Shown here one piece after another: positions 26,728-52,931 of a DNA stretch of 64,000 bases. Position 1 is the stretch's first letter. Every line of letters begins with the position of its first letter. Origin of the DNA: Gemmatimonadota bacterium (GTDB lineage: Bacteria; Gemmatimonadota; Gemmatimonadetes; Gemmatimonadales; GWC2-71-9); contig JBGPPG010000004.1 of assembly GCA_041488455.1 (NCBI GenBank), forward strand, positions 143 to 64,142, written 5' to 3'. Below the pieces are notes generated by a model that saw nothing but the letters and a program-made list of their open reading frames with translations, was not told the origin of the DNA and ran no database searches. The position numbers and the translations under genes are program-made.

Positions 26728-27690
26728 ATGTATCGCCGGATTGTCGTGCCGCTCGATGGCTCCGCCTTCGCCGAGGCAGCGTTGCCCGCCGCGGCCGCGA
26801 TCGCGCACCGGACGGAGGGGTGCCTCGAGCTGCTGATGGTGCACCAGTCGCAGCTCACCGGTGCGAGCCCGACGGCCGCGATGGAGCTCGACGTCCGCCT
26901 CCGCCAGGGCGAGAGCGCCTACCTGACGCAGCAGGCGAGACGCATCCCGAGCCCCGAGATCGCGGTCACATCGGCGTTGCTCGACGGCCCGGTCGTATCG
27001 ACGCTGATCGCGCACGCGCGATCGACGAACGCCGATTTGGTCGTGATGAGCACGCATGGCCGGGGCGGAATCAGCCGCTTCTTCCTTGGCAGCACCGCTG
27101 ACCGGCTGGTCCGCGATCTCCATTGTCCGATCCTCCTCGTGCGTCCGACGCAGTCGCCGACCGCGTTCGGCCTAGGGAACGTTCGGCGGATTCTGATCCC
27201 CTTGGATGGCTCGCCGCTGGCCGAGTGCATCATCGACCAGCTGGGCACCTGCCTCTCGGGGATGCCCGCCTTGGAGCTGATCCGGGTGGTCGTGCCACCG
27301 ATCTTGACGCCGCCGCCAATGGCGGGCGCTTCGCCACCGATCGCCGCCGAAGTGCTCGACCAGAAGCTCGCCGTCGCCGACCAGTACCTTCAGGCGGTCG
27401 GCGCGAGGCTCCGGGCGCAGGGTTTCGCCGTTCGGGGCGCCGTGGTCCCCGATCTGAGCCCAGCCGCGGCGATCACCGCGCGCGCCGAGGAGCGCCAATG
27501 CGACGCCATCGCCCTCGCGACGCGTGGGTCGGGGGGCCTGGAGCGGGCGTTGCTCGGCAGCGTCGCCGACAAGGTGATCCGGACCGCGCAGGTCCCGGTG
27601 TTGGTGTGGAACCCGCCCGCCGACGCCGTGACTCGAGACCCGGACGCCAGGGCTGCCGCGGGCGCCGTGGGCACGGGGGTAGACGCGTGA
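26728..27690 (+). CDS. Tandem universal stress protein (USP)
   Basis: Two UspA-like halves, each with a STHGRGG...LGS(T/V)AD motif. GGGAGG RBS. Confidence 0.9.
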   Translation: MYRRIVVPLDGSAFAEAALPAAAAIAHRTEGCLELLMVHQSQLTGASPTAAMELDVRLRQGESAYLTQQARRIPSPEIAVTSALLDGPVVSTLIAHARSTNADLVVMSTHGRGGISRFFLGSTADRLVRDLHCPILLVRPTQSPTAFGLGNVRRILIPLDGSPLAECIIDQLGTCLSGMPALELIRVVVPPILTPPPMAGASPPIAAEVLDQKLAVADQYLQAVGARLRAQGFAVRGAVVPDLSPAAAITARAEERQCDAIALATRGSGGLERALLGSVADKVIRTAQVPVLVWNPPADAVTRDPDARAAAGAVGTGVDA

Positions 27691-28112
27691 CGCCGTCAAA
27701 GCGCGGTTCGGCCCTCCTAGCCGGCCTCGTGGTTCTGGTTGCCGGCGCAGCCGGGGCCCAGGTCAACCCGGAGCCACGGCCGGCGGGCGTGACGGACAGC
27801 GCGGTCGCGTGGGGGAAGGCGCTCTTCCACGGGTCGGCGAACTGCAGTGCCTGCCACGGCGCCGAGGGAAGCGGGACCGATGTAGGGCCGCCGCTGACCG
27901 GTGGCCTGTGGCTACACGGACCGGGCACTTACGAGTGGTTGGCCGACCAGATCCGGCGGGGAATCCCGGCGCATGGCTCGATGAGCGGACTGGCGATGCC
28001 GATGCGGGGTTGGTCGATGATGAGCGACCACGACGTGAGCGCCGTCGCGGCCTACGTCTGGTCGATCACTCACCCACCGCGATCTCCGCGGCCCATGCGA
28101 CGCTCGTCTTGA
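27687..28112 (+). CDS. Class I c-type cytochrome
   Basis: Signal peptide, haem motif CSACH and a distal Met region (GLAMPMRGW). GTG overlaps the USP stop. Confidence 0.8.
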   Translation: MTPSKRGSALLAGLVVLVAGAAGAQVNPEPRPAGVTDSAVAWGKALFHGSANCSACHGAEGSGTDVGPPLTGGLWLHGPGTYEWLADQIRRGIPAHGSMSGLAMPMRGWSMMSDHDVSAVAAYVWSITHPPRSPRPMRRSS

Positions 28113-28115
28113 GCG

Positions 28116-29894
28116 ATGCCGAGCCGCTACTTCCGCGCAATTGCGCTGGATTACGACGGTACGCTCACGACAAATGACCGGCCCGACGCAACGGTGCTCG
28201 ATGCCATCGCCGACGCTCGACGCGAGGGCCGACGGCTCATCCTGGTGACCGGGCGCATCCTGGCCGAGCTCGAGCAGGTCTTTCCGGAGGCGCGGGAGAG
28301 CTTCGACGCGATCGTGGCCGAAAACGGCGCCGTCGTCTGGCAGGCCACGAGAGGCGTGCGGACGGCGGCACTACCGGTGAGCGTGGCCCTCGAGGAGGCG
28401 CTCCGCGGACGGGGCATTCCGGTGCGACGCGGTCAGGTGCTGCTCGCCACCGCGGCCGTGTACGACCAGGCAATCCTGCAGGAGATCGCCCGGCTGGGGC
28501 TCGGGGATCAGCTCGTGCACAATCGTGCCGCGCTGATGGTGCTGCCGTCCGGAATCACGAAGGGGACGGGCCTCCTCGAGGCGCTGGACGACCTCGGCGT
28601 GTCGCATCACAGCACGATCGGCGCGGGGGACGCGGAGAACGACCACTCGCTTCTCGATGTCTGCGAGCTCGGGGTCGCGGTGGCCAATGCGGTGGATGGG
28701 CTCAAGGCGCGAGCCGATGTCGTCCTCGCCGAACCGGACGGGGCGGGTATCACGTCTCTCCTTCGAGGCGCGATCCTCCGCGAGGAGGTTCGCATACCGC
28801 CCAGGCGCTGGGAGGTCCGCCTGGGCACGCTCCCGGACGGGCGTGCGGCGACGGTGCCGGGGGCGCAGGTCAACGTGCTCATAACGGGAGGCACGCGGAG
28901 CGGAAAGTCGTGTCTTGCCGGGCTCTTCGCCGAGCGGCTGATGGCCCGGCGGTACTCAGTGTGCGTTCTTGACCCCGAAGGCGACCATCTGGGTCTGGGC
29001 CAGCTCCATGGCGTGATGACGCTGGGTGGCAACGAGCCGCTCCCCAGCGCCGAGCTGCTCCGGCGTATCCTCGGCCACGGTGTCGGGAGCGCGGTGATCG
29101 ACCTGTCGCTCAGGCCCGCTTCGGAAAAGCACGACTATTGCCGCCGGGCCCTCGAAGCCCTTGCCCGGGCACGCGAGGAGACGGGACTCCCGCATTGGGT
29201 GTTTGTCGACGAAGCGCATCTCCTGCTCGGGTCGCGGAATCCGCTCCTCCAGCCCGAGGATGTGCAGCGCGGCCTCTGCTTCGTGACCTACCGCCCTGGC
29301 GAGCTGGACTCCGCCACTCTGGAGGCGATCGACGTCGTGCTCACCACGCCCGGCACCGAGGCACTCGCGCTGGCGGATGCGCCGCTGCCTCCACGGCTCG
29401 CTGCTCAGGTCTCTCGCCCCGCACTCGAGCGGGAACTCGCCGGTCTGCCGCTGGGCTGGGCAGTCCTCTTCGATCGCGCGGGGCCGCGGCGTTTCGTGGT
29501 CGATCGCCGTACGAGCAGCCACATCCGTCACTGGCACAAGTACCTGCACGCTTCCCTGCCGCCGCATCAACGGTTCTTCTTCCGCGCGCCAACCTACGCC
29601 ACCGGCGTTGCCGCCGCGAACCTGGCGGAGTTCCACGACGCGCTGCTCCGAAGCCAGCCGGATGTCATCCGCCACCATGCGGCGTGCCGGGACTTCTCGC
29701 GTTGGCTCGGCGGCGTGATCCGGGACGACGATCTCGCGCGCGACGTCAGGGACATCGAACGGACGATCGAAGCTGGTGCGGACGTGGAGCTTCTGCGGCA
29801 GCAGCTGGTCGGCCTGATCGAGCAGCGATATCCGGAAGAGGGGCTGGATCAGGCGCCGGTCACTTGGTCTGTACGGCCTCGATCGCGATCGTGA
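28116..29894 (+). CDS. HAD-IIB phosphatase domain fused to a HerA/FtsK-like P-loop ATPase domain
   Basis: HAD motif I IALDYDGTL and motif IV GAGDAENDHSLL. Walker A ITGGTRSGKS and Walker B HWVFVDEAHLLLG. About 170 aa at the C-terminus have no recognisable motif. Confidence 0.8.
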   Translation: MPSRYFRAIALDYDGTLTTNDRPDATVLDAIADARREGRRLILVTGRILAELEQVFPEARESFDAIVAENGAVVWQATRGVRTAALPVSVALEEALRGRGIPVRRGQVLLATAAVYDQAILQEIARLGLGDQLVHNRAALMVLPSGITKGTGLLEALDDLGVSHHSTIGAGDAENDHSLLDVCELGVAVANAVDGLKARADVVLAEPDGAGITSLLRGAILREEVRIPPRRWEVRLGTLPDGRAATVPGAQVNVLITGGTRSGKSCLAGLFAERLMARRYSVCVLDPEGDHLGLGQLHGVMTLGGNEPLPSAELLRRILGHGVGSAVIDLSLRPASEKHDYCRRALEALARAREETGLPHWVFVDEAHLLLGSRNPLLQPEDVQRGLCFVTYRPGELDSATLEAIDVVLTTPGTEALALADAPLPPRLAAQVSRPALERELAGLPLGWAVLFDRAGPRRFVVDRRTSSHIRHWHKYLHASLPPHQRFFFRAPTYATGVAAANLAEFHDALLRSQPDVIRHHAACRDFSRWLGGVIRDDDLARDVRDIERTIEAGADVELLRQQLVGLIEQRYPEEGLDQAPVTWSVRPRSRS

Positions 29895-30513
29895 TCTCCA
29901 CCTCATTGCCGATCACCGGACCGGCGGCCAGCCACTCGTTCCAGATCATGCCGTAATCGCGCCGATCGATCACCGTGCTCGCATCGAAGGCGATGCGCGG
30001 GTGCCGGTCGGGATCCACGGCGATCCCCCGAAATTGGCCCGTGAGGACCACGTGGTGCGCGCGCCCCTTGATCGTGAGAATCCCGCCGATCTCCACTGTG
30101 CTGTCGCTTGCCACAATGTCGGTGCTTTCGAAGGTCAGCGATGGGAAGCTGTCGACCGCGAAGAAGCGGGCGGAGCGGAGATCAGCATCCCGATAAGCGT
30201 TGCCCGTGCTGAGGCTGGCGGTCTGCGCCGACACGTTCACGGTGCCGTGCGTCCAATCCTGATCCTTCGTGACGATGATGCCATACCAGTCGGTGAAGGT
30301 GCCGCGTACCCGGCCGACCAGGTGCCGGACGCGGAAATCGATCTGGGAGTGCACGGGATCGATCACCCATTTCGTGCCGGTGACAGCTGGATGACCGGAG
30401 GCACGGGGAACCGCCTGGGCCCTCGTGTGCGACGGCAGCGCGAGCACAAGTGCAGCGGTGACGAGGGCGCCCATACTCGCGGGGCGACGGATCATGCGGA
30501 TCATACGGATCAT
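29860..30513 (-). CDS. YceI-family periplasmic protein
   Basis: WVIDPVHSQIDFRVRHLVGRVRGTFTDW signature. Signal peptide present. Confidence 0.85.
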   Translation of the reverse strand: MIRMIRMIRRPASMGALVTAALVLALPSHTRAQAVPRASGHPAVTGTKWVIDPVHSQIDFRVRHLVGRVRGTFTDWYGIIVTKDQDWTHGTVNVSAQTASLSTGNAYRDADLRSARFFAVDSFPSLTFESTDIVASDSTVEIGGILTIKGRAHHVVLTGQFRGIAVDPDRHPRIAFDASTVIDRRDYGMIWNEWLAAGPVIGNEVEITIAIEAVQTK

Positions 30514-30534: not shown

Positions 30535-30936
30535 TCAGCCTGCGAGCCGGTGCGCGGCGAACGCCCGGACGATGTCGGTCTGGGAGATGACGCCTGCGAG
30601 CACGCCATCTGTCTCGACGAAGAGGCGGTGGACCTCTCCGTACAGCATGCGCTGCGCTGCCTCGCGCACGTCGGCATCTCCTGGAATCGTGAGCCCCGGG
30701 CGGGTCATCACGTCCTCCACCACCCGGTCTTCCCAGAGGCCGCCGCCTGCCATCAAGCTCTCGGCCTGGGCCTCGAGGATGTCCGTCGTCGACACAACGC
30801 CCAGGATCTTGCCGTGCCGGTCTACCACGGGAACGCCGCTGATGTGCGCGTCCGCCAACTCTTCCACCACATCGGCCAGGGTTTCGTCAGGGTGCACCGC
30901 CTGCACATCTCCGCGCATGAGGTCGGAGACTCTCAT
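30535..30936 (-). CDS. CBS-pair domain protein
   Basis: Two CBS repeats (GVPVVDRHGKILGVVSTTDIL and RLFVETDGVLAGVISQTDIV). Confidence 0.85.
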   Translation of the reverse strand: MRVSDLMRGDVQAVHPDETLADVVEELADAHISGVPVVDRHGKILGVVSTTDILEAQAESLMAGGGLWEDRVVEDVMTRPGLTIPGDADVREAAQRMLYGEVHRLFVETDGVLAGVISQTDIVRAFAAHRLAG

Positions 30937-33434
30937 GAGGCCACTCCTCCGGCTGCATGGGCGCGCCCGTCGGCCAGCCGATGGGTCACGGCCACCAGTG
31001 AATCGGGGTTCAGGGAAATCGAATCGATGCCGAGGCCGGCCAGGAATTCGGCGAAGTCGGGGTAGTCGCTCGGGGCCTGACCGCAGATCCCCACCTTGCG
31101 ACCTTTGCGGTGTGCCGCGCCGACCACCATCTCGATGAGCCGCTTGACACCGGGGTCGCGCTCGTCGAAGAGCGCGGACAGCAATTCCGAGTCGCGATCG
31201 ATGCCCAGCGTCAGCTGGGTCAGATCGTTCGACCCGATCGAGAATCCGTCAAACAGCTCGCCGAACTCCTCCGCGAGCACCACGTTGTTGGGAATCTCGC
31301 ACATCACATACACCTCGAGCCCGTTCCGCCCTCGTGCCAGGCCGTTGCGGTCCATCTCGGCGAGCACCTTTCCCGCTTCGCCCAGGGTCCGGCAGAAGGG
31401 GATCATGACCGTCGTGTTGGTCAACCCCATGTCGTCGCGCACCCGCCGGATCGCCGCGCACTCGAGCGCGAAGGCCTCGCGGTAACGCTCATGGTAGTAA
31501 CGGGAGGCGCCCCGGAAGCCGATCATGGGATTCGCCTCGGTGGGCTCGAACGCTGCCCCGCCCAGGAGCCCCGCGTACTCGTTGGTCTTGAAGTCCGAGA
31601 AGCGGACGATCACCGGGCGCGGGTAGAACGCGGCAGCGATCTGCCCAACGCCCGATGCCAGGCGTTCGATGAAGAACTCGGCGAGGGGCGAGACGCCGCC
31701 GGTTCGCTCTTCGATCTGTGCCCGGATCGATCGATCGGTCACCCGCTCCGGGTGCAGCAGGGCCATGGGATGGACACCGATCCACGAGGAGACGACGAAC
31801 TCGATGCGGGCGAGCCCGACTCCGGCGCTCGGCAGTCTGGCGAGGTGGAACGCGCGTTCGGGATTCCCCACGTTCAGCATCAGGGGGACCCTTGGTGTCG
31901 GAAGCGTCGCCGGGTCCAGCTCGGTGTGATCGAACTCCACGCGTCCCTCGTACACACGCCCCTCATCGCCTTCGGCGCAGGAGACGGTGACGACGGCGCC
32001 ATCCGCGAGCGTCTGCGTGGCCGTGCCGGTACCAACCACGCAGGGAATGCCGAGCTCGCGCGACACGATCGCCGCGTGGCAGGTCCGTCCGCCCTCGTCG
32101 GTGATCACGGCGGCCGCGCGCGCGAGCACGGGCTCCCAGTCGGGATCGGTCATCCGCGCCACCAGCACCTCGCCGGGGCGGAAGCTCGGCAGCGCTGCCG
32201 GCGACCCGACGACGTGCACCGGGCCTGCGGCGACCTGGGTGCCCACGCTCCGGCCCTTGAGCAGGACCCGGCCGGTGCCACGGCGCCGAAACAGAGACAG
32301 CCGGGGTGACTCCTGGGAGTGGACGGTTTCGGGGCGCGCCTGCACGACGAAGAGCTCCCCGCTGCGACCGTCCTTCGCCCATTCGAGGTCCATGGGCGTG
32401 GGCCGCCCGGCCCGGCGAGAATAATGCTCCTCGATCAGCACCGCCCAGCGGGCGAGCTGGAGCACTTCATCATCGCTCAGGACGAGACGCCGGCGGTCGG
32501 CAGCCGCGACACGGACCTCGGTCACGGCCTTCGAGCCGCCTTCGGCGTATACCAGCTTGACGCCTTTCGCGCCGATCTCGCGTCTGATGACGGCGCGGAA
32601 ACCGAGCGCGAGTGTGGGTTTGTGAATCCAGAACTCGTCGGGGCGGACACGGCCCTGGACCACCGTCTCTCCCAGGCCCCAGGCTCCGCTCACCAGCACC
32701 ACATCCCGAAAGCCACTCTCGGTATCAAGGGTGAAGATGACGCCCGCCGATCCCAGGTCGCTGCGAACCATCTTCTGGACCCCGACCGAAAGCGCCACCG
32801 CACGGTGGGCGAAGCCGTTGGCGGTGCGGTAAACGATTGCCCGATCGGTGAACAGGGAGGCAAAGCAGGCGCGCACGGCGGTATCGAGCGCCGCGACCCC
32901 ACGGACGTTCAGATAGGTCTCCTGCTGGCCGGCGAACGAGGCGGTTGGAAGGTCCTCTGCGGTCGCGCTGGACCGGACGGCCACGTCGGTTGCCGGGTCC
33001 CCGTAACGCTTCGAGAGAGCCTCGTAGGCGGCGGTGAGCTCGGCCGCGACCGCAGCCGGTAGGGGCGCTTCGGCGATCCGCTGTCGAATCGAACGCGCCG
33101 TGACGGCGAGTTGCGCCACGTCGCCTGGATCCAAGGCGTCCAACTCACGGTAGATCTCGTCGGCAAGCCGGTTCTGAGAGAGGTGCACGCGGAACGCGTC
33201 GGCCGTGACGGCGAACCCGTCGGGGACCTGAATGCCCTTGGGGACGAGGGCATGCACCATCTCTCCCAACGATGCGTTCTTGCCGCCGACCTGCGCCACC
33301 TGGTCGAGCGTGATGGCATTGAACGGGATGACATACTTCCCGGAGGATGGGAGTGCGGAATCGCGTCGCACGGACGGCGCAGCAGCCGGGGTCGCCAAGG
33401 TCATCACTCGCTTGAGGCCGGCTCCAATAGTCAC
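30933..33434 (-). CDS. ppsA: Phosphoenolpyruvate synthase (pyruvate, water dikinase)
   Basis: VGGKNASLGEM N-terminus, phosphohistidine motif GGRTCHAAIVSRELGIPCVVG and a PEP-utiliser TIM-barrel C-terminus. The true start may be ATG 33404. Confidence 0.92.
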   Translation of the reverse strand: MTIGAGLKRVMTLATPAAAPSVRRDSALPSSGKYVIPFNAITLDQVAQVGGKNASLGEMVHALVPKGIQVPDGFAVTADAFRVHLSQNRLADEIYRELDALDPGDVAQLAVTARSIRQRIAEAPLPAAVAAELTAAYEALSKRYGDPATDVAVRSSATAEDLPTASFAGQQETYLNVRGVAALDTAVRACFASLFTDRAIVYRTANGFAHRAVALSVGVQKMVRSDLGSAGVIFTLDTESGFRDVVLVSGAWGLGETVVQGRVRPDEFWIHKPTLALGFRAVIRREIGAKGVKLVYAEGGSKAVTEVRVAAADRRRLVLSDDEVLQLARWAVLIEEHYSRRAGRPTPMDLEWAKDGRSGELFVVQARPETVHSQESPRLSLFRRRGTGRVLLKGRSVGTQVAAGPVHVVGSPAALPSFRPGEVLVARMTDPDWEPVLARAAAVITDEGGRTCHAAIVSRELGIPCVVGTGTATQTLADGAVVTVSCAEGDEGRVYEGRVEFDHTELDPATLPTPRVPLMLNVGNPERAFHLARLPSAGVGLARIEFVVSSWIGVHPMALLHPERVTDRSIRAQIEERTGGVSPLAEFFIERLASGVGQIAAAFYPRPVIVRFSDFKTNEYAGLLGGAAFEPTEANPMIGFRGASRYYHERYREAFALECAAIRRVRDDMGLTNTTVMIPFCRTLGEAGKVLAEMDRNGLARGRNGLEVYVMCEIPNNVVLAEEFGELFDGFSIGSNDLTQLTLGIDRDSELLSALFDERDPGVKRLIEMVVGAAHRKGRKVGICGQAPSDYPDFAEFLAGLGIDSISLNPDSLVAVTHRLADGRAHAAGGVAS

Positions 33435-33444: not shown

Positions 33445-33471
33445 TGAAGGGGTGGTGAAGACGGCGAGAAG
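33445..33471 (-). promoter_or_regulatory. Phased CTTCA array (3 units) oriented toward ppsA
   Basis: The plus strand reads TGAAG (33445), TGAAG (33456) and AGAAG (33467), exactly 11 nt apart. Confidence 0.5.
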
Positions 33472-33508: not shown

Positions 33509-33535
33509 TCTCACATCGCCTTCACGCCCGCTTCA
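33509..33535 (+). promoter_or_regulatory. Phased CTTCA array (3 units) oriented toward hsp20
   Basis: TCTCA (33509), CTTCA (33520), CTTCA (33531). Ends 79 nt before ATG 33614. Confidence 0.5.
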
Positions 33536-33613: not shown

Positions 33614-34057
33614 ATGAAGCTCACCAAAGCAGCGCCCACCGCTCTCGCCACCGTGCGCGACGATTTCGATCGGCTCTTCGACCGGATGTGGAACACGGGC
33701 GTGTTCGGAGCGCCACCTCGCGCATTCGAGACGATGTGGTCGCCATCGCTGGACTTCTCGGAGAACGAGAATGAGTACATCGTGCGGGTGGAAGCCCCGG
33801 GGATCCCCAAAGAGGATCTCGAGGTGAAGCTCGACGGGCAGAACCTCACGATTTCCGGGCGTCGGGAGTTCGAGAAGGAGGAGAAGACTGAGGAGTACTT
33901 TTGGCGGGAGCGCGAGGCCGGGAGATTCGTGCGCACCGTCCAACTGCCCGGCGCGGTTGAGCTGGCGAAGATCGCCGCAACCTATCAGGATGGAATCATG
34001 ACGGTCCGCCTGCCGAAGGCAGAGCCGGCCGAGAAGACCCGCATCCAGATCAAGTGA
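33614..34057 (+). CDS. Hsp20/alpha-crystallin small heat-shock protein
   Basis: Alpha-crystallin core (DFSENENEYIVRVEAPGIPKEDLEVKLDGQNLTISG...GIMTVRLPK). AAGGAGG RBS. Confidence 0.9.
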   Translation: MKLTKAAPTALATVRDDFDRLFDRMWNTGVFGAPPRAFETMWSPSLDFSENENEYIVRVEAPGIPKEDLEVKLDGQNLTISGRREFEKEEKTEEYFWREREAGRFVRTVQLPGAVELAKIAATYQDGIMTVRLPKAEPAEKTRIQIK

Positions 34058-38660: not shown

Positions 38661-38745
38661 GGTTCCCTTGTATTCGCTCAATCCCGAGCGGAGGCCGCGC
38701 CCGGACGGGTGACCCCGATGCTCCAAGGCACCGGGGTCAGGTGCC

Positions 38746-43970: not shown

Positions 43971-44664
43971 GGCGCTTTTCCCTGTTCGCCAGCACCTCTG
44001 CGCCTTCAGCCGGCGCGGGCACGGCCGTGGCGTGCCGGAGCAGCGTGCGGACCTCCTCGTCGGTCGTCTGGGAGAAGTCGTGGTACCACATGCCCACGGC
44101 CTGAAACGCCTCCGGGATGGCCACGGCTTCGCACCGATCGGCCGCCCGCGACAGCATGTGCCAGGCGCTCTCCGACATCACCGGTGCGGCGGCGATGATC
44201 GCGCCGGGCCCATGCTGCCGCAGCGCGTGGATGGCTGCCAGCATGGTGGCGCCGGTTGCCACCCCATCGTCGATCAAGATCACCGTCTTCCCCCGCAGAT
44301 CGGGGAAGGGGCGGCCGACGCGATAGTCACGCTCGCGGCGCTCCAGCTCGATCTGCTCGGACGCTGCGACCGAGTCGGCCACCTCGCGGGGAATGTTGAG
44401 GCGCCGAAGCACGTCCTGGCTCTGGACGCGAATGCCGCCGCTGGCGATCGCTCCCATGGCGAACTCCGGATGGCCCGGCACGCCAAGCTTACGCACGACG
44501 AAAACGTCCAGCGGGGCGCCGAGCGCCGTCGCCACCTCGGCGGCGACCGGTACTCCTCCACGGGGAAGGCCGAGCACGACCAGATCGGTCCGTCCAGTGA
44601 AGGTGGACAGTCGGCTGGCGAGCTGGCGTCCGGCGTCGTGGCGATCGGAAAAGGGAAGCGTCAT
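43954..44664 (-). CDS. Phosphoribosyltransferase-domain protein
   Basis: FSDRHDAGRQLASRL, LGLPRGGVPVAAEVA and PRPP loop VILIDDGVATGATM. Confidence 0.85.
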   Translation of the reverse strand: MTLPFSDRHDAGRQLASRLSTFTGRTDLVVLGLPRGGVPVAAEVATALGAPLDVFVVRKLGVPGHPEFAMGAIASGGIRVQSQDVLRRLNIPREVADSVAASEQIELERRERDYRVGRPFPDLRGKTVILIDDGVATGATMLAAIHALRQHGPGAIIAAAPVMSESAWHMLSRAADRCEAVAIPEAFQAVGMWYHDFSQTTDEEVRTLLRHATAVPAPAEGAEVLANREKRHAARR

Positions 44665-44674: not shown

Positions 44675-45139
44675 CTAAAGGTCCGTCAGGGCACGGCATT
44701 GATCGGCGGCACTGCTCCCCGATCTGTTGGCTGCTCCCCGAAATGATGGCACGTCGAGGATGAAGCAAGCATGAGAAAAGGCGGAAACGCCTTTAGAGGG
44801 CCGGCGCGCCAGGGTGTCGAGCAGCATGGCATCGTAATCGCCGGGCTCCAGGCCGTACTTTCCCGCCGCGCGCAATTCGTCGATCGCGGCGAATCCCGCT
44901 CGCGAGAGTTGCGACCCGTCGTGCCAGATCAAGGTGTCGGGCGGAGCACCATAGAGCCGGGACACGTCCGTCACGTAGCGGCCGAAGTCGGGCCACCGTG
45001 CCTATGGATGTCGCGCGGTCGCGATGAGCGTCCGGACCGAGACAGCGGCGCTATCTTGGGCACCGGCGGCAACCGGCGTCACCCACCCGAGCGCAAGGAT
45101 GGCTGCCAGCAGGCGAAGCGATCGTGAGAATCTCTTCAG
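44675..45139 (-). pseudogene. Remnant of a YcbB-like L,D-transpeptidase N-terminus (in-frame TAG, truncated)
   Basis: Signal peptide KRFSRSLRLLAAILALGWVTPVAAGAQ...ARHP, then TAG (45002-45004), then in the same frame ARWPDFGRYVTDVSRLYG...AGKYGLEPGDYD. No catalytic domain follows. There is no ATG or GTG at the N-terminus (CTG). Confidence 0.5.
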
Positions 45140-45208: not shown

Positions 45209-47857
45209 ATGCCGAGGAGATTGTACAGGAGCTTCGTCAGTCCTTCGCGGGCGATGGCAGGCCGCGCCAGCTCGACAGAGCGGCCTGACGCCGCGCCTGA
45301 CGGACTGCGAGAGTTCTGGCGCACCCCGCTGCCCGAGCTCTTCGCGCTGCTCGGCTCGCGCCCGAGCGGGTTGACCGCGGAAGAGGCCGCAGCCCAACTC
45401 ACCCGGTACGGTCCCAACACGCTCCATGTCGCGCGGAAGCATACGTTCATGCGTCTGTTCGTGTCGCGCTTCCGCAGTCCGCTGGTCATCCTGCTCCTCG
45501 TCGCCAGCACGATCTCCGCGCTGACGGGCGACGTTGTCAGCTCGACGATTGTCATCTGCATGGCGCTGCTCAGCGTGGTCCTCGACGCGGTGCAGGAGTA
45601 CCGGGCCGGAGAAGCGGCCGAGCGGCTCAAGCAGTCGGTCGCCGTGCAAGTCGATGTCCTGCGAGGCGGAGCTGCCACCACCGTGCCGGCCGCCGGCGTC
45701 GTCCCCGGCGATGTGGTGCTGCTCTCGGCCGGCGACTTGGTGCCGGCCGACGGCCGGGCGCTCGAGACGTACGACTGCTTCGCCAATCAAGCGCTGCTCA
45801 CCGGCGAGCCGTATCCGGTCGAGAAGCACGCCGACACAGCAGCCCCGTCCGTACCTCTGAATGAAGCGGCGAACGTCCTGTTCATGGGCACCTCCGTCGT
45901 GAGCGGGTCCGCCCGAGTCCTCGTCTGCCGAAGCGGGAGCGAAACGGCGCTCGGCGAGATCAGCAAGAGCCTGAGCGTGGAGCCACCACCGACCGCGTTC
46001 GAACAAGGCGCCCGGAGCTTCGGACTCCTGGTGCTGCGGCTCGCCGTGCTAATGACGTTGTTCGTCATCTTCGTCAATACGGCGCAGCACCGTCCCTGGC
46101 TGGAGTCGTTCCTGTTCGCCGTGGCCCTCGCGGTCGGGCTCACCCCGGAGCTGCTCCCCATGATCGTGTCGGTGACGCTCTCCCGCGGAGCGCTGCGAAT
46201 GGCGGCCAAGAAGGTCATCGTGAAGCGCCTGGCCGCGATCCACGACCTCGGGAGCATGAACGTGCTTTGCACCGATAAGACCGGGACCCTGACCGAGTCC
46301 CGGATCCGTCTTGAGCAGCACCTCGATCCCCTGGGTCGCAGCACCACCCGGGCGCTGGAGCTGGCCTATCTCAACAGCTATTTCGAGACCGGGCTGAAGA
46401 GTCCCCTCGACGAGGCCATTCTCCGGCACGGAGAGATCGAGCCGCGGGGCTGGACCAAGATCGACGAGGTCCCCTTCGACTTCCAGCGGCGCCGCGTCTC
46501 CGTCCTGCTTGCGCGGCAGGATGGCACGCGAATACTGGTCATCAAGGGAGCCTTCGAGGACATTCTGCGCTGTGCCGCCAGCTACGAGGGCGCCGGCCCC
46601 GACGATCTCCGACCGCTCGACCCCGGAGCCCGCGACGCGATGATACGTCGCTTTGAGGCGTTGAGCCGGGAGGGCTATCGGGTGCTCGGCATCGCATGGA
46701 AGGCGATGCCGCCCGCTTGGGCTCAGGCAGCGGTCGGCGATGAAGCGGGGCTCGTCTTCGCCGGGTTCGCGGCCTTCGAGGACCCACCCAAGCCGAGCGC
46801 GGCCGCGGCGTTAAAGGCGCTGGCCGAGAGCGGCGTGGAGGTGAAGGTCGTCACCGGCGACACCGAGCTCGTGACGCGCCATGTCTGCGCGGAGGTCGGA
46901 CTTGCCGTGAAGGCCGTCATGACCGGTCCGGAGCTCGACGCTCTCCAGGATGAGGCGCTCGAGGCGCGCGCCGGCGACGTGACGTTGTTCTGCCGCGTTA
47001 CCCCAGCCCAGAAGAGTCGCGTGATCCGGGCGCTGCGCCGGCGCGGCCATGTCGTCGGCTTTCTCGGAGATGGCATCAATGACGCGCCCTCCCTCCACGC
47101 GGCCGACGTTGCCATCTCGGTCGACACCGGCGTGGACGTCGCAAAGGCCGCCGCGGATCTGATCCTGCTCGAGCACGACCTGTCCGTGGTCCACGACGGC
47201 GTCGCCGAAGGCCGGCGCACCTTCGGGAACATCATGAAGTACATCATGATGGCCATGAGCTCGAATTTCGGGAACATGTTCAGCATGGCCGGGGCCTCCC
47301 TCTTCCTGCCGTTCCTGCCGATGCGCCCGGTCCAGGTGCTTCTGAACAACTTCCTCTACGATGTCTCGGAGATTCCTATCCCAATGGACAGCGTGGACGA
47401 GGAGTTCATGCGCCGCCCCCGGCACTGGGACATGGCGTTCGTCCGCAAGTTCATGCTGGTCATCGGACCGGTCAGCTCGATCTTCGACTTCCTGACGTTC
47501 TACATCATGCTGCACGTGTTTCGGGCGGGCGAGCAGCTCTTCCAGACCGGGTGGTTCGTCGAATCGCTGGCTACCCAGGTCTTGGTGATCTTCGTCATTC
47601 GCACCCGGGGCAATCCGCTCCGGAGCCGGCCGAGCCGACTGCTCACGCTGACGTCGCTCGGCGTGGTGGCCGTCGGCGCCCTGCTTCCGATTACGTCGCT
47701 CGGTCGCACGCTCGGCTTTGTGCCGCCCCCGGCGGCTTTCTTCCTCATCCTGGCCGCGATGGTGGCCATGTACCTCGGTGCCGTCCAGGCGGTGAAAATC
47801 TGGTTCTACCGGCGCTTTGCGCCGGAAGTGGTCGGAAAAGGGGCATACCGCATTTGA
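45209..47857 (+). CDS. mgtA: Magnesium-translocating P-type ATPase
   Basis: [32 protein letters not shown] and an MgtA-type C-terminal membrane region (WFVESLATQVLVIFVIRT). Confidence 0.88.
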   Translation: MPRRLYRSFVSPSRAMAGRASSTERPDAAPDGLREFWRTPLPELFALLGSRPSGLTAEEAAAQLTRYGPNTLHVARKHTFMRLFVSRFRSPLVILLLVASTISALTGDVVSSTIVICMALLSVVLDAVQEYRAGEAAERLKQSVAVQVDVLRGGAATTVPAAGVVPGDVVLLSAGDLVPADGRALETYDCFANQALLTGEPYPVEKHADTAAPSVPLNEAANVLFMGTSVVSGSARVLVCRSGSETALGEISKSLSVEPPPTAFEQGARSFGLLVLRLAVLMTLFVIFVNTAQHRPWLESFLFAVALAVGLTPELLPMIVSVTLSRGALRMAAKKVIVKRLAAIHDLGSMNVLCTDKTGTLTESRIRLEQHLDPLGRSTTRALELAYLNSYFETGLKSPLDEAILRHGEIEPRGWTKIDEVPFDFQRRRVSVLLARQDGTRILVIKGAFEDILRCAASYEGAGPDDLRPLDPGARDAMIRRFEALSREGYRVLGIAWKAMPPAWAQAAVGDEAGLVFAGFAAFEDPPKPSAAAALKALAESGVEVKVVTGDTELVTRHVCAEVGLAVKAVMTGPELDALQDEALEARAGDVTLFCRVTPAQKSRVIRALRRRGHVVGFLGDGINDAPSLHAADVAISVDTGVDVAKAAADLILLEHDLSVVHDGVAEGRRTFGNIMKYIMMAMSSNFGNMFSMAGASLFLPFLPMRPVQVLLNNFLYDVSEIPIPMDSVDEEFMRRPRHWDMAFVRKFMLVIGPVSSIFDFLTFYIMLHVFRAGEQLFQTGWFVESLATQVLVIFVIRTRGNPLRSRPSRLLTLTSLGVVAVGALLPITSLGRTLGFVPPPAAFFLILAAMVAMYLGAVQAVKIWFYRRFAPEVVGKGAYRI

Positions 47858-47891
47858 TGGTAGCCACCATGAAGCCAGTCCGAATCCTTCC

Positions 47892-50579
47892 GTGAGCGCC
47901 CCCTGGCACGCGGTGCCGCTGAGCGAGGCGCTGGATCGCCTCGGCTCGAGGCCGGGCGGACTGGACGAGACCGAGGCCGCCGACCGGCTCGCCCGGCACG
48001 GCCCCAACCTGTTCCGCGCAGCCCCGCCAGTGTCGCCCTGGATGGTGCTCGCCGCGCAGCTGCGGAGCATGATCGTGCTCCTGCTCGCGGCGGCTGCGGT
48101 GGTTGCGCTGCTTTCCGGTGACGCGCTCGATGCCGGGGCTATCGGGGCGGTGCTGGTCCTCAACGTCGCCATCGGATTCGTCACCGAGCTGCGCGCGCAT
48201 CGGGCCATGGAATCGCTGCTCGCGCTGGAGGTGACCCGTGCGCACGTGGTGCGCCAGGGAACGACGCGCGCGATCGACGCCCCCGGCCTGGTTCCCGGCG
48301 ACGTCATCGAGCTCGAGGCCGGCCAGATGGTACCGGCGGACGCTCGGCTCCTCGAGGCTGCCGAGCTCCGCGCGGTGGAGGCCTCGCTCACCGGCGAGCC
48401 GGTCCCGGTCGACAAGACCGCCGATGTCCGCCTGGCCGCGGAGGTCCCTCTCCCCGACCGTATCACGATGGTTTACAAGGCGACGATGATTGCGGGTGGG
48501 CGCGGGCGCGCGGTGGTAGTGGCGACCGGGATGGACACCGAGGTCGGACGCATCGGTCTCCTGGCCCGCGCCATCGCACCCGAGCCGACGCCCCTCGAGC
48601 GCCGGCTCGGCGAGCTCGGTCGCGGTCTCGCGGGCGTGGCGCTGGTCGTCGCGGCGCTGGTGGCGGGCCTGGAGGCCCTGCATGGCGTCCCACTCGCCGG
48701 GATTGTGCAGACCGCGCTCGCGCTCGCGGTGGCGGCGGTGCCGGAGGGACTCCCCGTGGTCGGGACCATTGCGATGGCGGTCGGCATGCGTCGGATGGCC
48801 CGTCGCCGGGCGCTCGTGCGGCGACTGTCGGCTGTGGAGGCGCTGGGCTCCGCCACCGTGATTTGCACCGACAAGACCGGCACGCTCACAGCCGGCGAGA
48901 TGACGGTGACCGTCATACGGCTCCTCGAACGGGAGGTTTCGCTGAGTGGTGCGGGGTACGCGCCCGAGGGCGAGTTCCTCGAGAACGGGCGACCAGTCGA
49001 GTCCCTACAGGACGCGGCCCTGCAACTCGCCCTGCAGATCGGCGCACTGGCAAACCGAAGCGACGTCGTCCTGCGGGAAGGGGCATGGCGAGTCAGGGGC
49101 GATCCCACCGAGGCGGCGTTGGTCGTCGCGGCGCGGAAAGCGGGACTGGAGCCCGCCCGCCTGCGCGAGGGGTGGCCCGAAGCAGGGGAGGTTCCCTTCT
49201 CCAGTGGGCGCATGCTGATGGCCACGTTTCACCGGACGCCGACCCTGACGGCCTGCGTGAAAGGCGCGCCCAGACGAGTTCTGGAGCTGAGCGACCGGGT
49301 CCTCGCGGCGGAGGGGCCGAGAGCGCTCGTTGAAGGAGAGAGAGAGGAGCTCCTTCGGCTCAACGGCGAGCTCGCTGGGCGGGGGCTCCGCGTTCTCGCG
49401 CTCGCCATGAAGCGCGTGGACGCCGTCAGTGAAGCGGAGCTCTGCGGCCTCACGTGGGTCGGCTTCGTCGGGATCAGCGACCCGCCGGCGCCGGGGGTCC
49501 TGGATACGATCCGCGCCTTCCGGGAGGCCGGGATCCGCACCGTCATGCTGACCGGGGACCAGAAGCTCACGGCCGAGAGCGTCGGACGTGAGCTGGGCCT
49601 GCTGGGCCCCCGCGACGGAGCGCTCGATGGCCGTGAGCTCGACCGGCTCTCGGATGACCAGCTCCACGAGGCGGTGGCTCTGACGGCCGCGTTCAGTCGC
49701 GTGAGCCCCGAGGCCAAGCTCCGGATCGTCAGCGCCTATCAGCAGCGGGGTGAGATCGTCGCGATGCTGGGCGACGGCGTGAACGATGCCGCAGCGCTCC
49801 GCAAGGCCGACATCGGCGTCGTGATGGGACTGCGTGGAACGGACCTGGCGAGGGAAGCGGCGCAACTCGTCTTACAGGACGACCGCTTCGCTACCATCGC
49901 GGTGGCGATCGAAGAGGGGCGGGTGATCTTCGACAACATCCGCAAGTTCGTGTTCTACCTCTTCAGCTGTAATCTCGCCGAGATCATGGTGTTGCTTGGA
50001 GCAGGGCTGGTCGGGGCTCCCGTGCCGCTGCTTCCGGTCCAGATCCTCTGGCTCAACCTCCTCACCGACACCTTTCCCGCCCTCGCCCTCGCGGTCGAGC
50101 CACCAGAGCCGGGGACCATGCGCCAGCCACCCCGTGATCCCCGGGCGGCCATCCTCTCGATGCCGATGCTGTGGGCGACGGTCGGATACGCCCTGCTCAT
50201 CGCCGGGGTATCGGTGGCGGCGTTCGCGTGGGGGCTCTCGGGCGGCAATGGACGGGCGAGAACTCTCACCTTCATGACTCTGGCCCTCGCGCAAGTCTTC
50301 CACCTCGGCAATGCGCGAAGCGACCTTCCGGTGACGGCGCCGGGCCGCGTTCTGAGCAACCGCTTCGCGGTGGGCGCGGTCGTGTTGACGGTCGGGCTCC
50401 AGCTTCTCGCGGTCTTCCTGCCGCCGCTGGCACGCGTGCTCCGCATCGAGCCGCTCGGGGCCCGGGACTGGGCGGTGGTCACGGCTCTCAGCTTGCTCCC
50501 CGCAGTCGCGGGGCAGAGCTTGAAATGGGCGCGGGCACGGGGATTGTGGGGCCGGTCTCCCTCCGAGCCCGGTTTCTAA
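47892..50579 (+). CDS. Cation-transporting P-type ATPase, type IIA (Ca2+-ATPase-like)
   Basis: [51 protein letters not shown] 47892 was chosen to avoid overlap with mgtA. Confidence 0.88.
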
Positions 50580-50615: not shown

Positions 50616-51209
50616 TCACGTGGGGCCCGCAGCGCCCGGCGCCCCGGCTCCCGATGCCGGTCCGGGTACCGCGAGCGTCTCCGCCAGCTCCCTGGCGAAC
50701 CGGTCGACGGCCTCCCAGTCGGTGAAGTCGTAGTCCCGGGACGCGTCGGTGGGCCGCCCCGTTCGGCGGCTGATCATCCTCATCATCCAGCGGACGAAAG
50801 GACCGTACCGCGTGTACGGCAAGGCCCCGGCGAAGGATCGCGTCGCCCAGGGCCGCCACCCGGTCTCACGGAGGAACTTGTCGACGTATCCCTGCGGTGG
50901 GCCTGCCCCCTCCGGTGCCGACCCCGCCGCAGCCCCGCACACGGAGACAAAGGCCGAAGGAGCCGCGTTGAGTCGGGCGACATGGCTGCGGACGAATGAG
51001 CGGATGTAACGCTGGTGCCGGCCAAAGAGGACAGACGCCGCTACGAAAAAGGCGTTGTATTCACCCAATGACAAATCCGGCGGCAACAGATCGCCCCGCT
51101 GAACGGTCACGGTGTGACCGGCATCGGTCAGCACGAGCGCGATTCGTTGCGTGATTCGTGCCGTTTGGCCGTAGGCCGTGCCGTAGACGAGCAGAATGTT
51201 GGACATCAC
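50616..51209 (-). CDS. Flavodoxin-domain protein (HemG-like)
   Basis: ILLVYGTAYGQTARITQRIA flavodoxin N-terminus. Size and pattern resemble menaquinone-dependent protoporphyrinogen oxidase relatives. Confidence 0.75.
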   Translation of the reverse strand: MMSNILLVYGTAYGQTARITQRIALVLTDAGHTVTVQRGDLLPPDLSLGEYNAFFVAASVLFGRHQRYIRSFVRSHVARLNAAPSAFVSVCGAAAGSAPEGAGPPQGYVDKFLRETGWRPWATRSFAGALPYTRYGPFVRWMMRMISRRTGRPTDASRDYDFTDWEAVDRFARELAETLAVPGPASGAGAPGAAGPT

Positions 51210-51264: not shown

Positions 51265-52242
51265 CTAGTGGCCGGCGGCCAGGGCCGGCGATCGCTCGGC
51301 AGCCCCGACGGCGGCGAGCACCCGGCTCCACGCGCCCGGCGGCGGATTCCAGACCAGGAGCGGCACCTGGGCCCCGCGGGCCAGCTTGTCCGCTACGCTG
51401 CCGAGCAGCATTCGCTCGACACCGCCCAGCCCGTGGGTCGCGACGGCGATCAGATCGGACCGATGAGTCACCGCATGGGTAAGGATCGCATCGGCGACGG
51501 ACGGGTCGATGTGCACCTCGGTGTGAACCTGGAGACCCAGCGTGCGAAGGCGCACCGCCACGGCGTGCACGTACCGGTTTGCGGCCAGCAACTCCTGCTT
51601 CTCTTTGGCGGCTAGCGCAAACGGTGCCTCGACGGGGAGTAGGAGTCCGCGGAGCGGGGCCACGACCTGGACCAGTTCGAGCACGACCTCATCTCGGGGA
51701 AACACCGCGAGGACCTGGTCGATCACCGACTCGGCAAGCGGAGACCCGTCCAGCGGGACGAGGACGCGCCGCCGACGATCCGGCCGAAACCTCGTGACGA
51801 CGCTCCCGGCGTGCACCAGCAGGAGCGGGCAATGAAGCTGACGCATCAGTCGATCGGCGACGCTGCCCAGGAAGAGGCGACTCACCGTTCCGCGTCCATG
51901 GGTGCTCATGACGAAGAGGTGCGGCTCGCGAGACCTGGCATACGCGATCAGCATCGGTGCCGCCGGCCCCTCGAGTACCACGGGCGTAGCGGTCACGCCC
52001 GACTCGACCGAAACGCGGTCGGCGGTCTTGCGCAAGTAGGCCTCCTCGTCGGACCGGATCTGTTGATCGAGCGCCAGCACGGCATCCGCGCCCGGCTCGG
52101 CCCCAGGCACGATCGGGGGAAGGGAGTGTGCCAGCACCAGCTCCAGCGGCTCCCCGAGTCTCGTCGCGACCTCGACGGCGAGCGGAAGCGCTTCTTCCGC
52201 GAAGGTGGAGCCGTCGAGTGGGACGATGATTGGCTTGGCCAT
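51265..52242 (-). CDS. Tandem universal stress protein (USP)
   Basis: Two UspA halves (STHGRGTVSRLFLGSVAD and ATHGLGGVERMLLGSVAD). GGAGGA RBS. Confidence 0.9.
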   Translation of the reverse strand: MAKPIIVPLDGSTFAEEALPLAVEVATRLGEPLELVLAHSLPPIVPGAEPGADAVLALDQQIRSDEEAYLRKTADRVSVESGVTATPVVLEGPAAPMLIAYARSREPHLFVMSTHGRGTVSRLFLGSVADRLMRQLHCPLLLVHAGSVVTRFRPDRRRRVLVPLDGSPLAESVIDQVLAVFPRDEVVLELVQVVAPLRGLLLPVEAPFALAAKEKQELLAANRYVHAVAVRLRTLGLQVHTEVHIDPSVADAILTHAVTHRSDLIAVATHGLGGVERMLLGSVADKLARGAQVPLLVWNPPPGAWSRVLAAVGAAERSPALAAGH

Positions 52243-52286: not shown

Positions 52287-52313
52287 TGAAGCGAGGATGA
52301 AGCCCGGGCGAAG
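52287..52313 (-). promoter_or_regulatory. Phased CTTCA array (3 units) oriented toward the USP at 52242
   Basis: The plus strand reads TGAAG (52287), TGAAG (52298) and CGAAG (52309). The proximal unit lies 45 nt before the ATG. Confidence 0.5.
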
Positions 52314-52335
52314 CCGGCGTCATCCCGGGAACGAC

Positions 52336-52362
52336 CGTCACGGAGCCTTCACCGAGCCTTCA
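52336..52362 (+). promoter_or_regulatory. Phased CTTCA array (3 units) oriented toward ORF 52437
   Basis: CGTCA (52336), CTTCA (52347), CTTCA (52358), within GAGCCTTCAccGAGCCTTCA. Confidence 0.5.
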
Positions 52363-52436
52363 TGCTCGTTCTGTAGCATTGAGCGAGGGATATCCTCAAA
52401 CCCACGGTTCGGTCGGGAGTCGAAGCGAGGTACCTC

Positions 52437-52931
52437 GTGACATCGAGCAGTAAGCGCCCTCGGAGCTCGAGGCGCGACTCGGGCCCGACAATCGCGTCCA
52501 TCCTGGCCCCGATCCACGCTGATTGGATGAGGCGGACTCGCCGGGCGGTAGAGCCTGTGCTGTCGCCCGAGGCCAGCTTCTGGGACCGCTGGACGACGAT
52601 CCGGTACGTGGACGACCTATTCGACCACCACTACCGTCACGAAGTCGCCCTGGTCGGGAGCGTTGTCCCGCTTCTTCCGGCTTCGGTGGCGGCACGCCTC
52701 ACTACCCTGACCGAGACGCTCGACGAGGCGCTGGCGCGGCTCGATCAGCTGGGCCGCCGGAGGGGGATGGCCCGTGCCGTGTCGGTGATCGCCCGGGAGT
52801 TTCTGGATCTCCTTCAGCTCTGGTGCGCTGAGGTCGAGGAGGCCGTCGGGGAGTTGCGGAGGAAAGATCTTCCCGAGCCGAGCGAACGACTCCTTGTGGC
52901 TCTGGAGGCGGCGGCGACGGCCGAGTCGTGA
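52437..52931 (+). CDS. Hypothetical helical protein
   Basis: ORF downstream of a phased-repeat array. No family recognised. Confidence 0.45.
   Translation: MTSSSKRPRSSRRDSGPTIASILAPIHADWMRRTRRAVEPVLSPEASFWDRWTTIRYVDDLFDHHYRHEVALVGSVVPLLPASVAARLTTLTETLDEALARLDQLGRRRGMARAVSVIAREFLDLLQLWCAEVEEAVGELRRKDLPEPSERLLVALEAAATAES

Follow-up and report, generated by a model that had tools for sequence, protein, structure and literature searches.

The DNA analyzed here is a stretch of 64,000 nucleotides from contig JBGPPG010000004.1 of a Gemmatimonadota bacterium, referred to below, at its full length, as the window. Gemmatimonadota are abundant soil bacteria whose gene regulation is almost undescribed. 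Between 26.7 and 52.9 kb the window carries a cluster of stress- and dormancy-type genes in which sites containing a triple direct repeat of the pentamer CTTCA precede 10 of the 12 transcription units. Genes were called from third-position G+C (the G+C content of the window is ~0.69) and were named by comparison with Pfam and NCBIfam. An Hsp20 identical to that of the cluster, with the same neighbors, is encoded on a contig of JGI metagenome 3300052990 (run SRR29604914); the source is accordingly an uncultured member of the phylum. A sequence-only reading of this DNA had drawn up a list of gene families in the cluster and likened them to the DosR dormancy regulon of Mycobacterium tuberculosis, and every family on that list is present. 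What it called three tandem universal stress proteins (USPs) are three proteins with two USP domains each; the domains are in tandem, but the genes are dispersed and nonadjacent. Members beyond the list are a cytochrome c, a YceI protein, a HAD-IIB phosphatase, an erythromycin-esterase-family protein, and two small or unknown open reading frames (ORFs).

The leftmost transcription unit, on the plus strand, probably comprises three genes. The first encodes USP1 (26728-27690; Pfam Usp, E value 8e-50, two stretches), whose matches in the PDB include the tandem USP Rv2623 of M. tuberculosis (3cis/2jax; E value ~8e-8). It is followed by genes for a small secreted class I cytochrome c with a CSACH motif in its translation (27687-28112; Pfam Cytochrom_C and Cytochrome_CBB3) and for a HAD-IIB (Cof-type) phosphatase fused to a C-terminal DUF5752-like region (28116-29894; Pfam, and NCBIfam HAD-SF-IIB at 65.7 bits against a cut-off of 41.8). 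The site of this unit (26656-26682, plus strand; score 16.9 with the weight matrix described below) has a degenerate first unit followed by CTTCA-N6-CTTCA, with an inverted TGAAG 4 nt upstream and TAACGA 12 nt downstream. The next unit, on the minus strand, encodes phosphoenolpyruvate synthase, PpsA (30933-33434; NCBIfam NF005057, 1129 bits, cut-off 598), the first of two CBS-pair proteins (30535-30936; Pfam CBS, two stretches), and finally a YceI-like protein (29860-30513; Pfam YceI, E value 6e-39), behind a triple site at 33445-33471 (minus strand) that matches at 14 of 15 bases (score 37.8). Divergent from the ppsA site is that of hsp20 (33509-33535, plus strand; 13 of 15 bases, score 30.3), which precedes an Hsp20/alpha-crystallin gene at 33614-34057 (plus strand; Pfam HSP20). 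Beyond it lie cfa, encoding a cyclopropane-fatty-acyl-phospholipid synthase (34083-35459, minus strand; Pfam CMAS), and a gene for a PAS-PAS-GGDEF diguanylate cyclase of 439 residues (35628-36947, plus strand; Pfam domains, with the start at 35628 taken from an independent gene call), which has a weaker triple, GCTCA-N6-TTTCA-N6-GCTCA, at 35558-35584 (plus strand; score 19.4).

The four-gene minus-strand unit that follows has the strongest site in the window, CTTCG-N6-CTTCA-N6-CTTCA, which is separated by 12 nt from TAGACT (39509-39535, minus strand; 14 of 15 bases, score 44.7). Its first product is an OsmY-like protein with three BON domains (38746-39489; Pfam BON, three stretches), the closest relatives of which, at most 63% identical, are encoded in metagenome-assembled genomes of Gemmatimonadota. 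The others are an HPF/RaiA-like (S30AE) protein with a C-terminal cold-shock domain (CSD) (38118-38786; Pfam S30AE, 41.5 bits, cut-off 23.7; Pfam CSD), which scores under the cut-off for NCBIfam yfiA, a dodecin (37882-38094; Pfam Dodecin), and the two-domain USP2 (36951-37874; Pfam Usp, two stretches). Upstream, also on the minus strand, is an ORF whose 85-residue translation matches nothing in Pfam or NCBIfam (39556-39813); its triple, TTTCA-N6-TTTCA-N6-CTTCA followed by TAGCTT, lies at 40016-40042 (minus strand; score 21.3). The adjacent minus-strand gene encodes an eRF1-like protein of baeRF family 10 (40071-41258; Pfam baeRF_family10, 55.7 bits, cut-off 27.1) and has a triple site at 41288-41314 (minus strand; score 20.6) with TGAAG 4 nt upstream. 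Against the NCBIfam families of Rv2629, MSMEG_1130, and AOC03_06830 this protein scores 19 to 43 bits, where the cut-offs are 320 to 480 (E values of 2e-8 for the Rv2629 family and 5e-11 for the AOC03_06830 family), and by these scores it is a distant relative only of the Balon/Rv2629 ribosome hibernation factors.

A further minus-strand unit encodes a phosphoribosyltransferase (PRTase; 43954-44664; Pfam Pribosyltran) and a dienelactone-hydrolase-type (DLH) alpha/beta hydrolase (41887-42618; Pfam DLH and Abhydrolase_1), with an erythromycin-esterase-family protein (EreA; 42615-43970; Pfam Erythro_esteras, E value 6e-139) between them and the second CBS-pair protein last (41453-41944; Pfam CBS). 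Its triple, TTTCC-N6-TCTCA-N6-CTTCA (44761-44787, minus strand; score 31.6), lies inside a doubtful 99-residue ORF (44675-44974, minus strand) with a weak match to Pfam Scaffold. This ORF aligns with part only of proteins of 545 to 563 residues in L007 and L012 (L numbers denote 8- to 20-kb pieces of other genomes) and is probably a gene remnant, not a live gene. To its right, on the plus strand, are an operon for the magnesium-translocating P-type ATPase MgtA (45209-47857; TIGR01524, 892 bits, cut-off 611) and a type IIA (Ca-type) P-type ATPase (47817-50579), for which the top NCBIfam models are PMR1-type and SERCA-type, both under cut-off. The cluster ends with two sites placed back to back. 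One, on the minus strand (52287-52313; 14 of 15 bases, score 34.6), is followed after 12 nt by TAGGGT and serves the genes for the two-domain USP3 (51265-52242; Pfam Usp, two stretches; its start was reset to 52242, 3' of the site) and a Flavodoxin_5 protein (50616-51209; Pfam). The other, on the plus strand (52336-52362; 14 of 15 bases, score 25.1), precedes an ORF for a helical protein of 164 residues without a match in Pfam or NCBIfam (52437-52931).

In other Gemmatimonadales, homologues of the 164-residue protein are encoded beside USP genes and CTTCA sites, namely, at L012:6875-7360, L082:2935-3420, L085:12667-13113, and L237:2649-3134. They form a family of helical proteins of 150 to 165 residues with the motifs FWDRW, GRRRGTA, and WCAEIE, which recurs with a CTTCA site beside USP genes or beside the kinase-regulator pair introduced below. 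An HHxxHE string raised the idea that the 164-residue protein is hemerythrin-like; this is unsupported, as there is no Pfam or NCBIfam match and a PDB profile search returned generic helical bundles.

The CTTCA repeat is strongly overrepresented and strictly phased. If up to one mismatch is allowed, the window contains 13 copies of CTTCA-N6-CTTCA, where 1.19 would be expected; exact CTTCA pairs number seven at a period of 11 and zero or one at every other period between 7 and 15; and triples matching at 13 or more of 15 bases number seven, against 0.04 in shuffled sequence. To avoid circularity, the weight matrix was trained on 59 sites taken exclusively from other genomes. Its profile is CTTCA-N6-CTTCA-N6-CTTCA-N12-tAgnnT, the final hexamer resembling a -10 box. 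Scanned with this matrix, the window yields 10 sites above the shuffle maximum of 12.4, all at 26.6 to 52.4 kb and all pointing toward a start codon, and none of the ~30 genes outside the cluster has a site above that maximum. Of the 59 independent sites, 33 have TAnnnT beginning exactly 12 nt past the last unit; A occupies position 2 of the hexamer in 86% and T its last position in 88%. An inverted TGAAG often stands 4 nt upstream of the triple. Just outside the cluster, a Dps/ferritin-like gene (58441-59004, plus strand) and a catalase-like gene (60858-61976, plus strand) have no CTTCA site and are therefore probably under separate, oxidative-stress control.

This geometry has the features of class II sites of the OmpR/PhoB type: direct repeats one helical turn apart (exactly 11 bp), overlap with the position of the -35 box, a fixed distance to the -10 box, and orientation toward the gene. 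Class II activators that resemble PhoB typically have such sites, and we propose that an OmpR/PhoB-family response regulator would bind the three units in tandem, head to tail, in the place that a -35 box would occupy, and would recruit RNA polymerase from there. In agreement with the sequence-only reading, the shared element is a phased direct repeat and not a DosR-type palindrome. The Dev-box core GGGACnnnnGTCCC, allowing up to two mismatches, is found 68 times in the window, against 79 expected, and is not concentrated in the cluster promoters. Nor does the FNR/Anr box TTGAT-N4-ATCAA offer an alternative, its eight matches (4.7 expected) including three in the cluster, all of them inside genes.

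The element is conserved in the phylum, where it precedes the same gene families. Gemmatimonadota loci totaling ~320 kb contain 35 triple sites, whereas 2.4 Mb of loci from other phyla, retrieved with the same queries, contain 2. Scanning 185,579 species genomes, one per species, for the exact pattern gave at least 120 loci; 16 of the 120 listed are from Gemmatimonadota, and several of those listed adjoin USP, Hsp20, CBS, BON, or eRF1-like genes. We also compared with Pfam 56 proteins from other Gemmatimonadota genomes, each the product of the first gene behind a site. Among them are eight CBS proteins, six USPs, three or four OmpR-type regulators, and two PRTases, together with single examples of erythromycin esterase, ribonucleotide reductase, PpsA, P-type ATPase, BON protein, heme-copper oxidase subunit I (COX1), and the small subunit of NiFe hydrogenase. 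In L007 an Acg-like nitroreductase gene lies downstream of a site. Gene order in relatives is not conserved, the same families recurring shuffled, so that synteny is unusable as evidence; the recurrence of the same families behind the motif despite this shuffling is the mark of a regulon rather than of an inherited block. Statistically, the case that the cluster represents a real regulon with a defined operator is solid, with its function predicted from the gene families.

These data bear on another explanation, in which the clustering is a coincidence or stems only from local operons (e.g., HPF-Balon-BON) and the repeat is a trait of promoters in this lineage, read by a housekeeping or alternative sigma factor, rather than an operator specific to a regulon. 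The unconserved gene order would suit such an explanation, as would the fact that the HPF-Balon-Hsp20-OsmY neighborhood is widespread without the motif. We nevertheless regard it as very improbable: the sites are confined to 26 kb of the 64-kb window, three phased units are not a sigma-factor signature, and the motif tracks the same families in other genomes. The pairing of BON and Hsp20 genes is likewise widespread and independent of the CTTCA motif; of 69 loci from outside the Gemmatimonadota (L008-L080; Acidobacteriota, Myxococcota, Chloroflexota, Proteobacteria, and Actinobacteria), ~37 have hsp20 no more than 10 kb from a gene for a protein with three BON domains.

The cluster was also described by the sequence-only reading as an island. 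Taken to mean foreign DNA, this description did not survive the compositional scan, which points to native DNA: the tetranucleotide profile of the cluster correlates with that of the left flank at r = 0.955, 5-kb windows of the cluster give r values of 0.91 to 0.94, equal to or above those of the flanks, and the G+C content in this cluster-flank comparison is 0.682 versus 0.707, which is not the deviation of an acquired island. Wholesale horizontal acquisition of the cluster from Actinobacteria is, in our estimation, the least probable of the explanations considered. It would account for the overlap of the gene families with the DosR regulon and for a sensor domain in relatives (GAF-A; see below) that is ~55% identical to actinobacterial DosS/DosT-type domains, but besides the composition of the DNA, the closest homologues of the cluster proteins are in Gemmatimonadota, and neither the cis-code nor the regulator class is actinobacterial. 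The sole candidate for foreign DNA in the window is an atypical stretch at 52.5 to 60 kb (G+C content 0.61 to 0.66, tetranucleotide r 0.77 to 0.84), which contains an AMP-binding/PCP/thioesterase gene resembling a single-module nonribosomal peptide synthetase (53304-56129, plus strand).

A candidate for the regulator came from related genomes. In L004, a related Gemmatimonas locus, a gene for a 410-residue GAF-HisKA-HATPase kinase is followed by one for a 235-residue OmpR-family regulator (L004:9392-11389), and the pair sits among USP, CBS, BON, and EreA genes. Orthologues of the regulator, at 76 to 85% identity, occur in 12 further Gemmatimonadales loci, the next match falling to 53%, and in 10 of these 12 a kinase orthologue adjoins the regulator, directly upstream in 9. 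Cultured Gemmatimonadota are not represented among the regulator orthologues found. One contig labeled Acidimicrobiia (L081; CAXMUQ010000069.1) encodes a regulator and a kinase that are 82% and 55% identical, respectively, to the Gemmatimonadales pair; either the contig is misbinned or the pair was recently transferred. A search for a regulator inside the window yielded no DNA-binding response regulator; its only finds were a REC-HD-GYP protein and a PAS hybrid kinase, both at 8.5 to 12.3 kb. The genes concerned (8520-12349, the kinase having three PAS domains) bear no relation to the regulon, and the same is true of a DUF4129/DUF4350/MoxR(AAA_3)/DUF58-like cluster at 4416-8509.

The candidate regulator consists of a REC domain and a Trans_reg_C domain, i.e., an OmpR/PhoB winged helix, and it belongs to a class other than that of DosR, which has a NarL/LuxR helix-turn-helix. 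The suggestion of the sequence-only reading that a different regulator is at work is upheld in so far as the class of the likely regulator differs; the regulator itself is a candidate seen in relatives only. What ties it to the motif is a site at its own gene. The sequence (TGAAG-N4-)CTTCA-N6-nTTCc-N6-GTTCA, then 11 to 12 nt, TAnnnT, 6 to 8 nt, and ATG, is conserved upstream of the regulator genes. A triple matching at 11 or more of 15 bases is present within 90 nt upstream of 13 of 15 such genes, compared with 1.3% of background windows, and in 9 of the 15 the last unit ends 24 to 25 nt before the ATG. This site is best read as autoregulatory. The distance of only 6 to 8 nt between the -10-like hexamer and the ATG (L081-L090, L004) implies that the regulator mRNAs would be leaderless or nearly so. 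In unrelated phyla, exact CTTCA triples lie within 8 kb of genes for other OmpR-family regulators in ~20% of loci (L166, L167, L176, L180, L195, L203, L236, L238, and others), which is above expectation, the chance rate being an estimate rather than a computed value; this suggests that related autoregulated systems may exist in those phyla.

Classical Pho boxes are 11-bp direct repeats that replace the -35 box and end ~10 to 12 nt before the -10 box. The CTTCA sites have the same architecture, and with the PhoB model the candidate regulator reaches 200 bits, raising the alternative that the repeats are Pho boxes and that the cluster belongs to a phosphate-starvation regulon under PhoB/PhoP. 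However, 200 bits is under the PhoB cut-off of 296, the regulator is under every other NCBIfam equivalog cut-off as well, and models of other OmpR subfamilies outscore that of PhoB. Moreover, the motif-bearing regulator gene is paired with that of a soluble DosS-like GAF kinase instead of PhoR, no pst, phoU, or phosphatase gene is present among the 56 site-associated genes, and a phosphodiesterase gene in the window (59001-60467) has no site. Control by phosphate starvation therefore appears improbable.

A more serious alternative is that the repeats are bound by another member of the OmpR family, which senses not O2, NO, or CO but some other signal (e.g., a general stationary-phase, osmotic, or envelope signal), and that the Dos-like pair is a target of this regulator, not the master. 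CTTCA-type triples beside assorted OmpR-family genes in many phyla make the motif class generic, no regulator is encoded in the window, and the genes for Hsp20, OsmY-like BON protein, HPF, Balon, and Cfa are general stationary-phase or osmotic-stress genes (PMC10901736). On the other side, the site at the regulator gene keeps its fixed distance in 9 of 15 orthologues, site-bearing USP, CBS, and Hsp20 genes repeatedly adjoin the GAF-kinase pair, and no other regulator gene recurs in site-rich loci. We consider this alternative unlikely, though far from negligible.

The sensor kinase of the proposed pair would provide the link to oxygen. The best PDB matches of its GAF domain are GAF-A of DosT (2vzw; E value 9e-39) and GAF-A of DevS/DosS (2w3d, 2y8h, and 4ynr; ~1e-36). 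In DosS, His149 is the proximal heme ligand and Tyr171 acts on the distal side (PMC4082495). The equivalents of both residues, in the contexts nHPPMR and LYLTeK, are kept in 15 of 15 kinase orthologues, so that the features of a heme-binding GAF-A are present in the sequences of the related loci, though not in the window, and heme binding is predicted. A database search with the GAF domain alone retrieved Gemmatimonadales proteins of the GAF + HisKA type first and then, at lower identities, proteins (the named ones actinobacterial) some of which combine GAF with HisKA_3 (PF07730), as in DosS; one automatic annotation labels a 72%-identical Gemmatimonadota protein "DevS." Judged by these matches, the GAF domain of the candidate sensor is homologous to GAF-A of DosS/DosT.

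Taken together, the observations suggest, as the simplest model, the following. The cluster would be a regulon native to its genome, made up of genes for stress, dormancy, and ribosome hibernation, with at least 10 of its 12 units under one activator site, the CTTCA triple. Its activator would most probably be the orthologue of the conserved Gemmatimonadales regulator, encoded outside the window, autoregulated through its own triple repeat, and partnered by the soluble kinase with its one GAF, HisKA, and HATPase domains. By analogy with DosS and DosT, the kinase would be activated when O2 is lost or when its heme binds NO or CO, and the phosphorylated regulator would in turn activate the cluster. 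To the model as a whole, from Dos-like heme-GAF sensor through HisKA kinase to OmpR-family activator at CTTCA triples, we assign a probability of roughly 0.55, and for its central mechanistic link the odds are about even.

Several observations weigh against the model. Within the cluster, the cfa gene has only a borderline site (35538, minus strand; score 10.5, under the shuffle maximum of 12.4), and the matrix scan found no site upstream of the MgtA/Ca-ATPase operon. Three Gemmatimonadales loci with similar genes (L013, L018, and L054) have no sites. Neither kinase nor regulator is encoded in the window, where tblastn detected only unrelated REC domains at 9.2 to 9.9 kb; that the window's own genome carries the pair is an assumption. 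In the sites at the regulator genes the middle unit is degenerate, and the link between regulator and motif depends on the putative autoregulatory site and on neighborhood, so that another OmpR-family regulator could own the motif. The kinase has neither the GAF-B domain nor the HisKA_3 domain of DosS, and its signal transmission may differ. An orthologue of the DosS-like GAF kinase at 44% identity (L013:13074-14117, minus strand) has no adjacent response regulator; L013 contains no CTTCA site in 20 kb, though HPF, BON, and eRF1-like genes are nearby, and this lineage may use different wiring. Finally, the transcriptome of Gemmatimonas phototrophica at 10% versus 21% O2 showed a mild response, with 41 differentially expressed genes, including one USP gene (PMC11406998); this organism belongs to a different lineage, and so mild a response in so distant a relative is no test of the model.

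How such a system arose is a separate question. Convergent assembly, as proposed by the sequence-only reading, does not fit the homology of the parts: the sensor GAF domain finds its best matches in GAF-A of DosT and DosS (E values of 1e-36 to 1e-39) with both heme-associated residues conserved, and the effectors belong to homologous families, which co-occur in many phyla. Because sensor domain and effector families alike are homologous to their Dos counterparts, we favor rewiring over convergence; the evidence points to a common origin or to gene exchange, combined with rewiring of the output, rather than to independent invention. A more specific proposal is a hybrid pathway in which an actinobacterial-type heme GAF-A was joined by recombination to a HisKA kinase and an OmpR-family regulator and drives, through the CTTCA operator, a largely homologous dormancy set (USPs, Hsp20, CBS proteins, HPF, Balon, PRTase/EreA, P-type ATPase, nitroreductase, ribonucleotide reductase, and hydrogenase). 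We put this proposal forward tentatively, its chances being somewhat short of even.

If the model is correct, the phylum gains a defined operator, candidates for a master regulator and its sensor, and a predicted regulon for oxygen limitation or growth arrest. The heme-GAF gas sensor of the M. tuberculosis type would then not be confined to the DosR (NarL-type) pathway, since an OmpR-type output would act on an equivalent gene set, and stress-regulon evolution would include a case in which gene content was kept while the wiring was replaced. Beside DosR and the FNR/Anr-controlled lxa locus discussed below, it would be the third independent wiring of the same functional module. Should the hybrid pathway also prove correct, the dormancy regulon would be a horizontally shared toolkit in which sensor, transmitter, and cis-code are interchangeable modules, and the Gemmatimonadota would offer a natural experiment in regulon rewiring across phyla. 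A literature search returned no paper linking Gemmatimonadota to Dos-type systems or DosS-like sensors to OmpR regulators.

Among known systems, the closest in gene content is the DosR regulon. As the sequence-only reading had supposed, the families of the cluster mirror those of DosR: the literature confirms USPs, Rv1997 (ctpF), Rv2626c (hrp1), Rv0571c (PRTase), Rv0079 (RaiA), and Rv2629 as members or homologues, and the cluster has the corresponding set of USPs with tandem domains, Hsp20 (HspX), CBS-pair proteins, Ca-type P-type ATPase, HPF/RaiA protein, Balon-type factor, and PRTase. Rv2030c, listed in the literature as uncharacterized, may be a PRTase joined to an erythromycin esterase. 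The likeness extends to nitroreductase and ribonucleotide reductase in Gemmatimonadota relatives, to the position of a USP gene beside the two-component genes, and to the apparent autoregulation of the regulator. The differences lie in the wiring. The candidate regulator is of the REC + Trans_reg_C (OmpR) type, whereas DosR is REC + GerE/LuxR (NarL/LuxR); the candidate kinase has one GAF, HisKA (PF00512), and HATPase_c, whereas DosS has GAF-A, GAF-B, HisKA_3, and HATPase; and the operator consists of three direct CTTCA units with an 11-bp period instead of a 20-bp palindromic Dev box. PpsA, Cfa, dodecin, BON protein, MgtA, the GGDEF protein, and cytochrome c are additional members here, the phylum is Gemmatimonadota, and the system is known from sequence alone.

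DosR-like gene content under another regulator is not new in kind, the precedent being the lxa locus of Burkholderia cenocepacia, a DosR-like low-oxygen cluster under an FNR/Anr-type motif, whose authors themselves pointed out that it overlaps the DosR regulon while using a different cis motif (PMC3721108). Like the cluster described here, lxa comprises tens of clustered genes, including those for multiple USPs, alpha-crystallin, BON-type phospholipid-binding proteins, a cation ATPase, and a nitroreductase (PMC3721108), and a single motif recurs at many intergenic points. The lxa motif, however, is an FNR/Anr-like inverted repeat, TGA-N6-TCA, whereas the window shows no enrichment of FNR boxes, and induction and phenotype were demonstrated experimentally for lxa, whereas here they are predicted. 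In Streptomyces coelicolor, OsdK/OsdR is reported to control a DevR-like dormancy or stress regulon outside the mycobacteria, with a USP-rich cluster (PMC5069765). There OsdR is a DevR orthologue acting at a DevR-like site, i.e., the wiring is conserved within Actinobacteria, whereas in Gemmatimonadota the regulator class appears to have changed.

At the level of the promoter, the nearest parallel is PhoB/PhoP, with which the system shares 11-bp direct repeats in place of the -35 box ~10 to 12 nt before the -10 box and, as predicted here, tandem binding of winged helices. It differs in its CTTCA units, three in number with an occasional inverted fourth, in its DosS-like GAF partner kinase, in a regulator that falls under the PhoB cut-off, and in a regulon devoid of phosphate-acquisition genes. 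At the level of the operon, the BON-HPF-dodecin-USP unit and the adjacent eRF1-like gene reproduce a ribosome-hibernation neighborhood already described, that of the Balon-RaiA(HPF)-Hsp20-OsmY operons (PMC10901736) and of baeRF with HPF (PMC6514570), but here this neighborhood lies within a larger regulon under a common operator.

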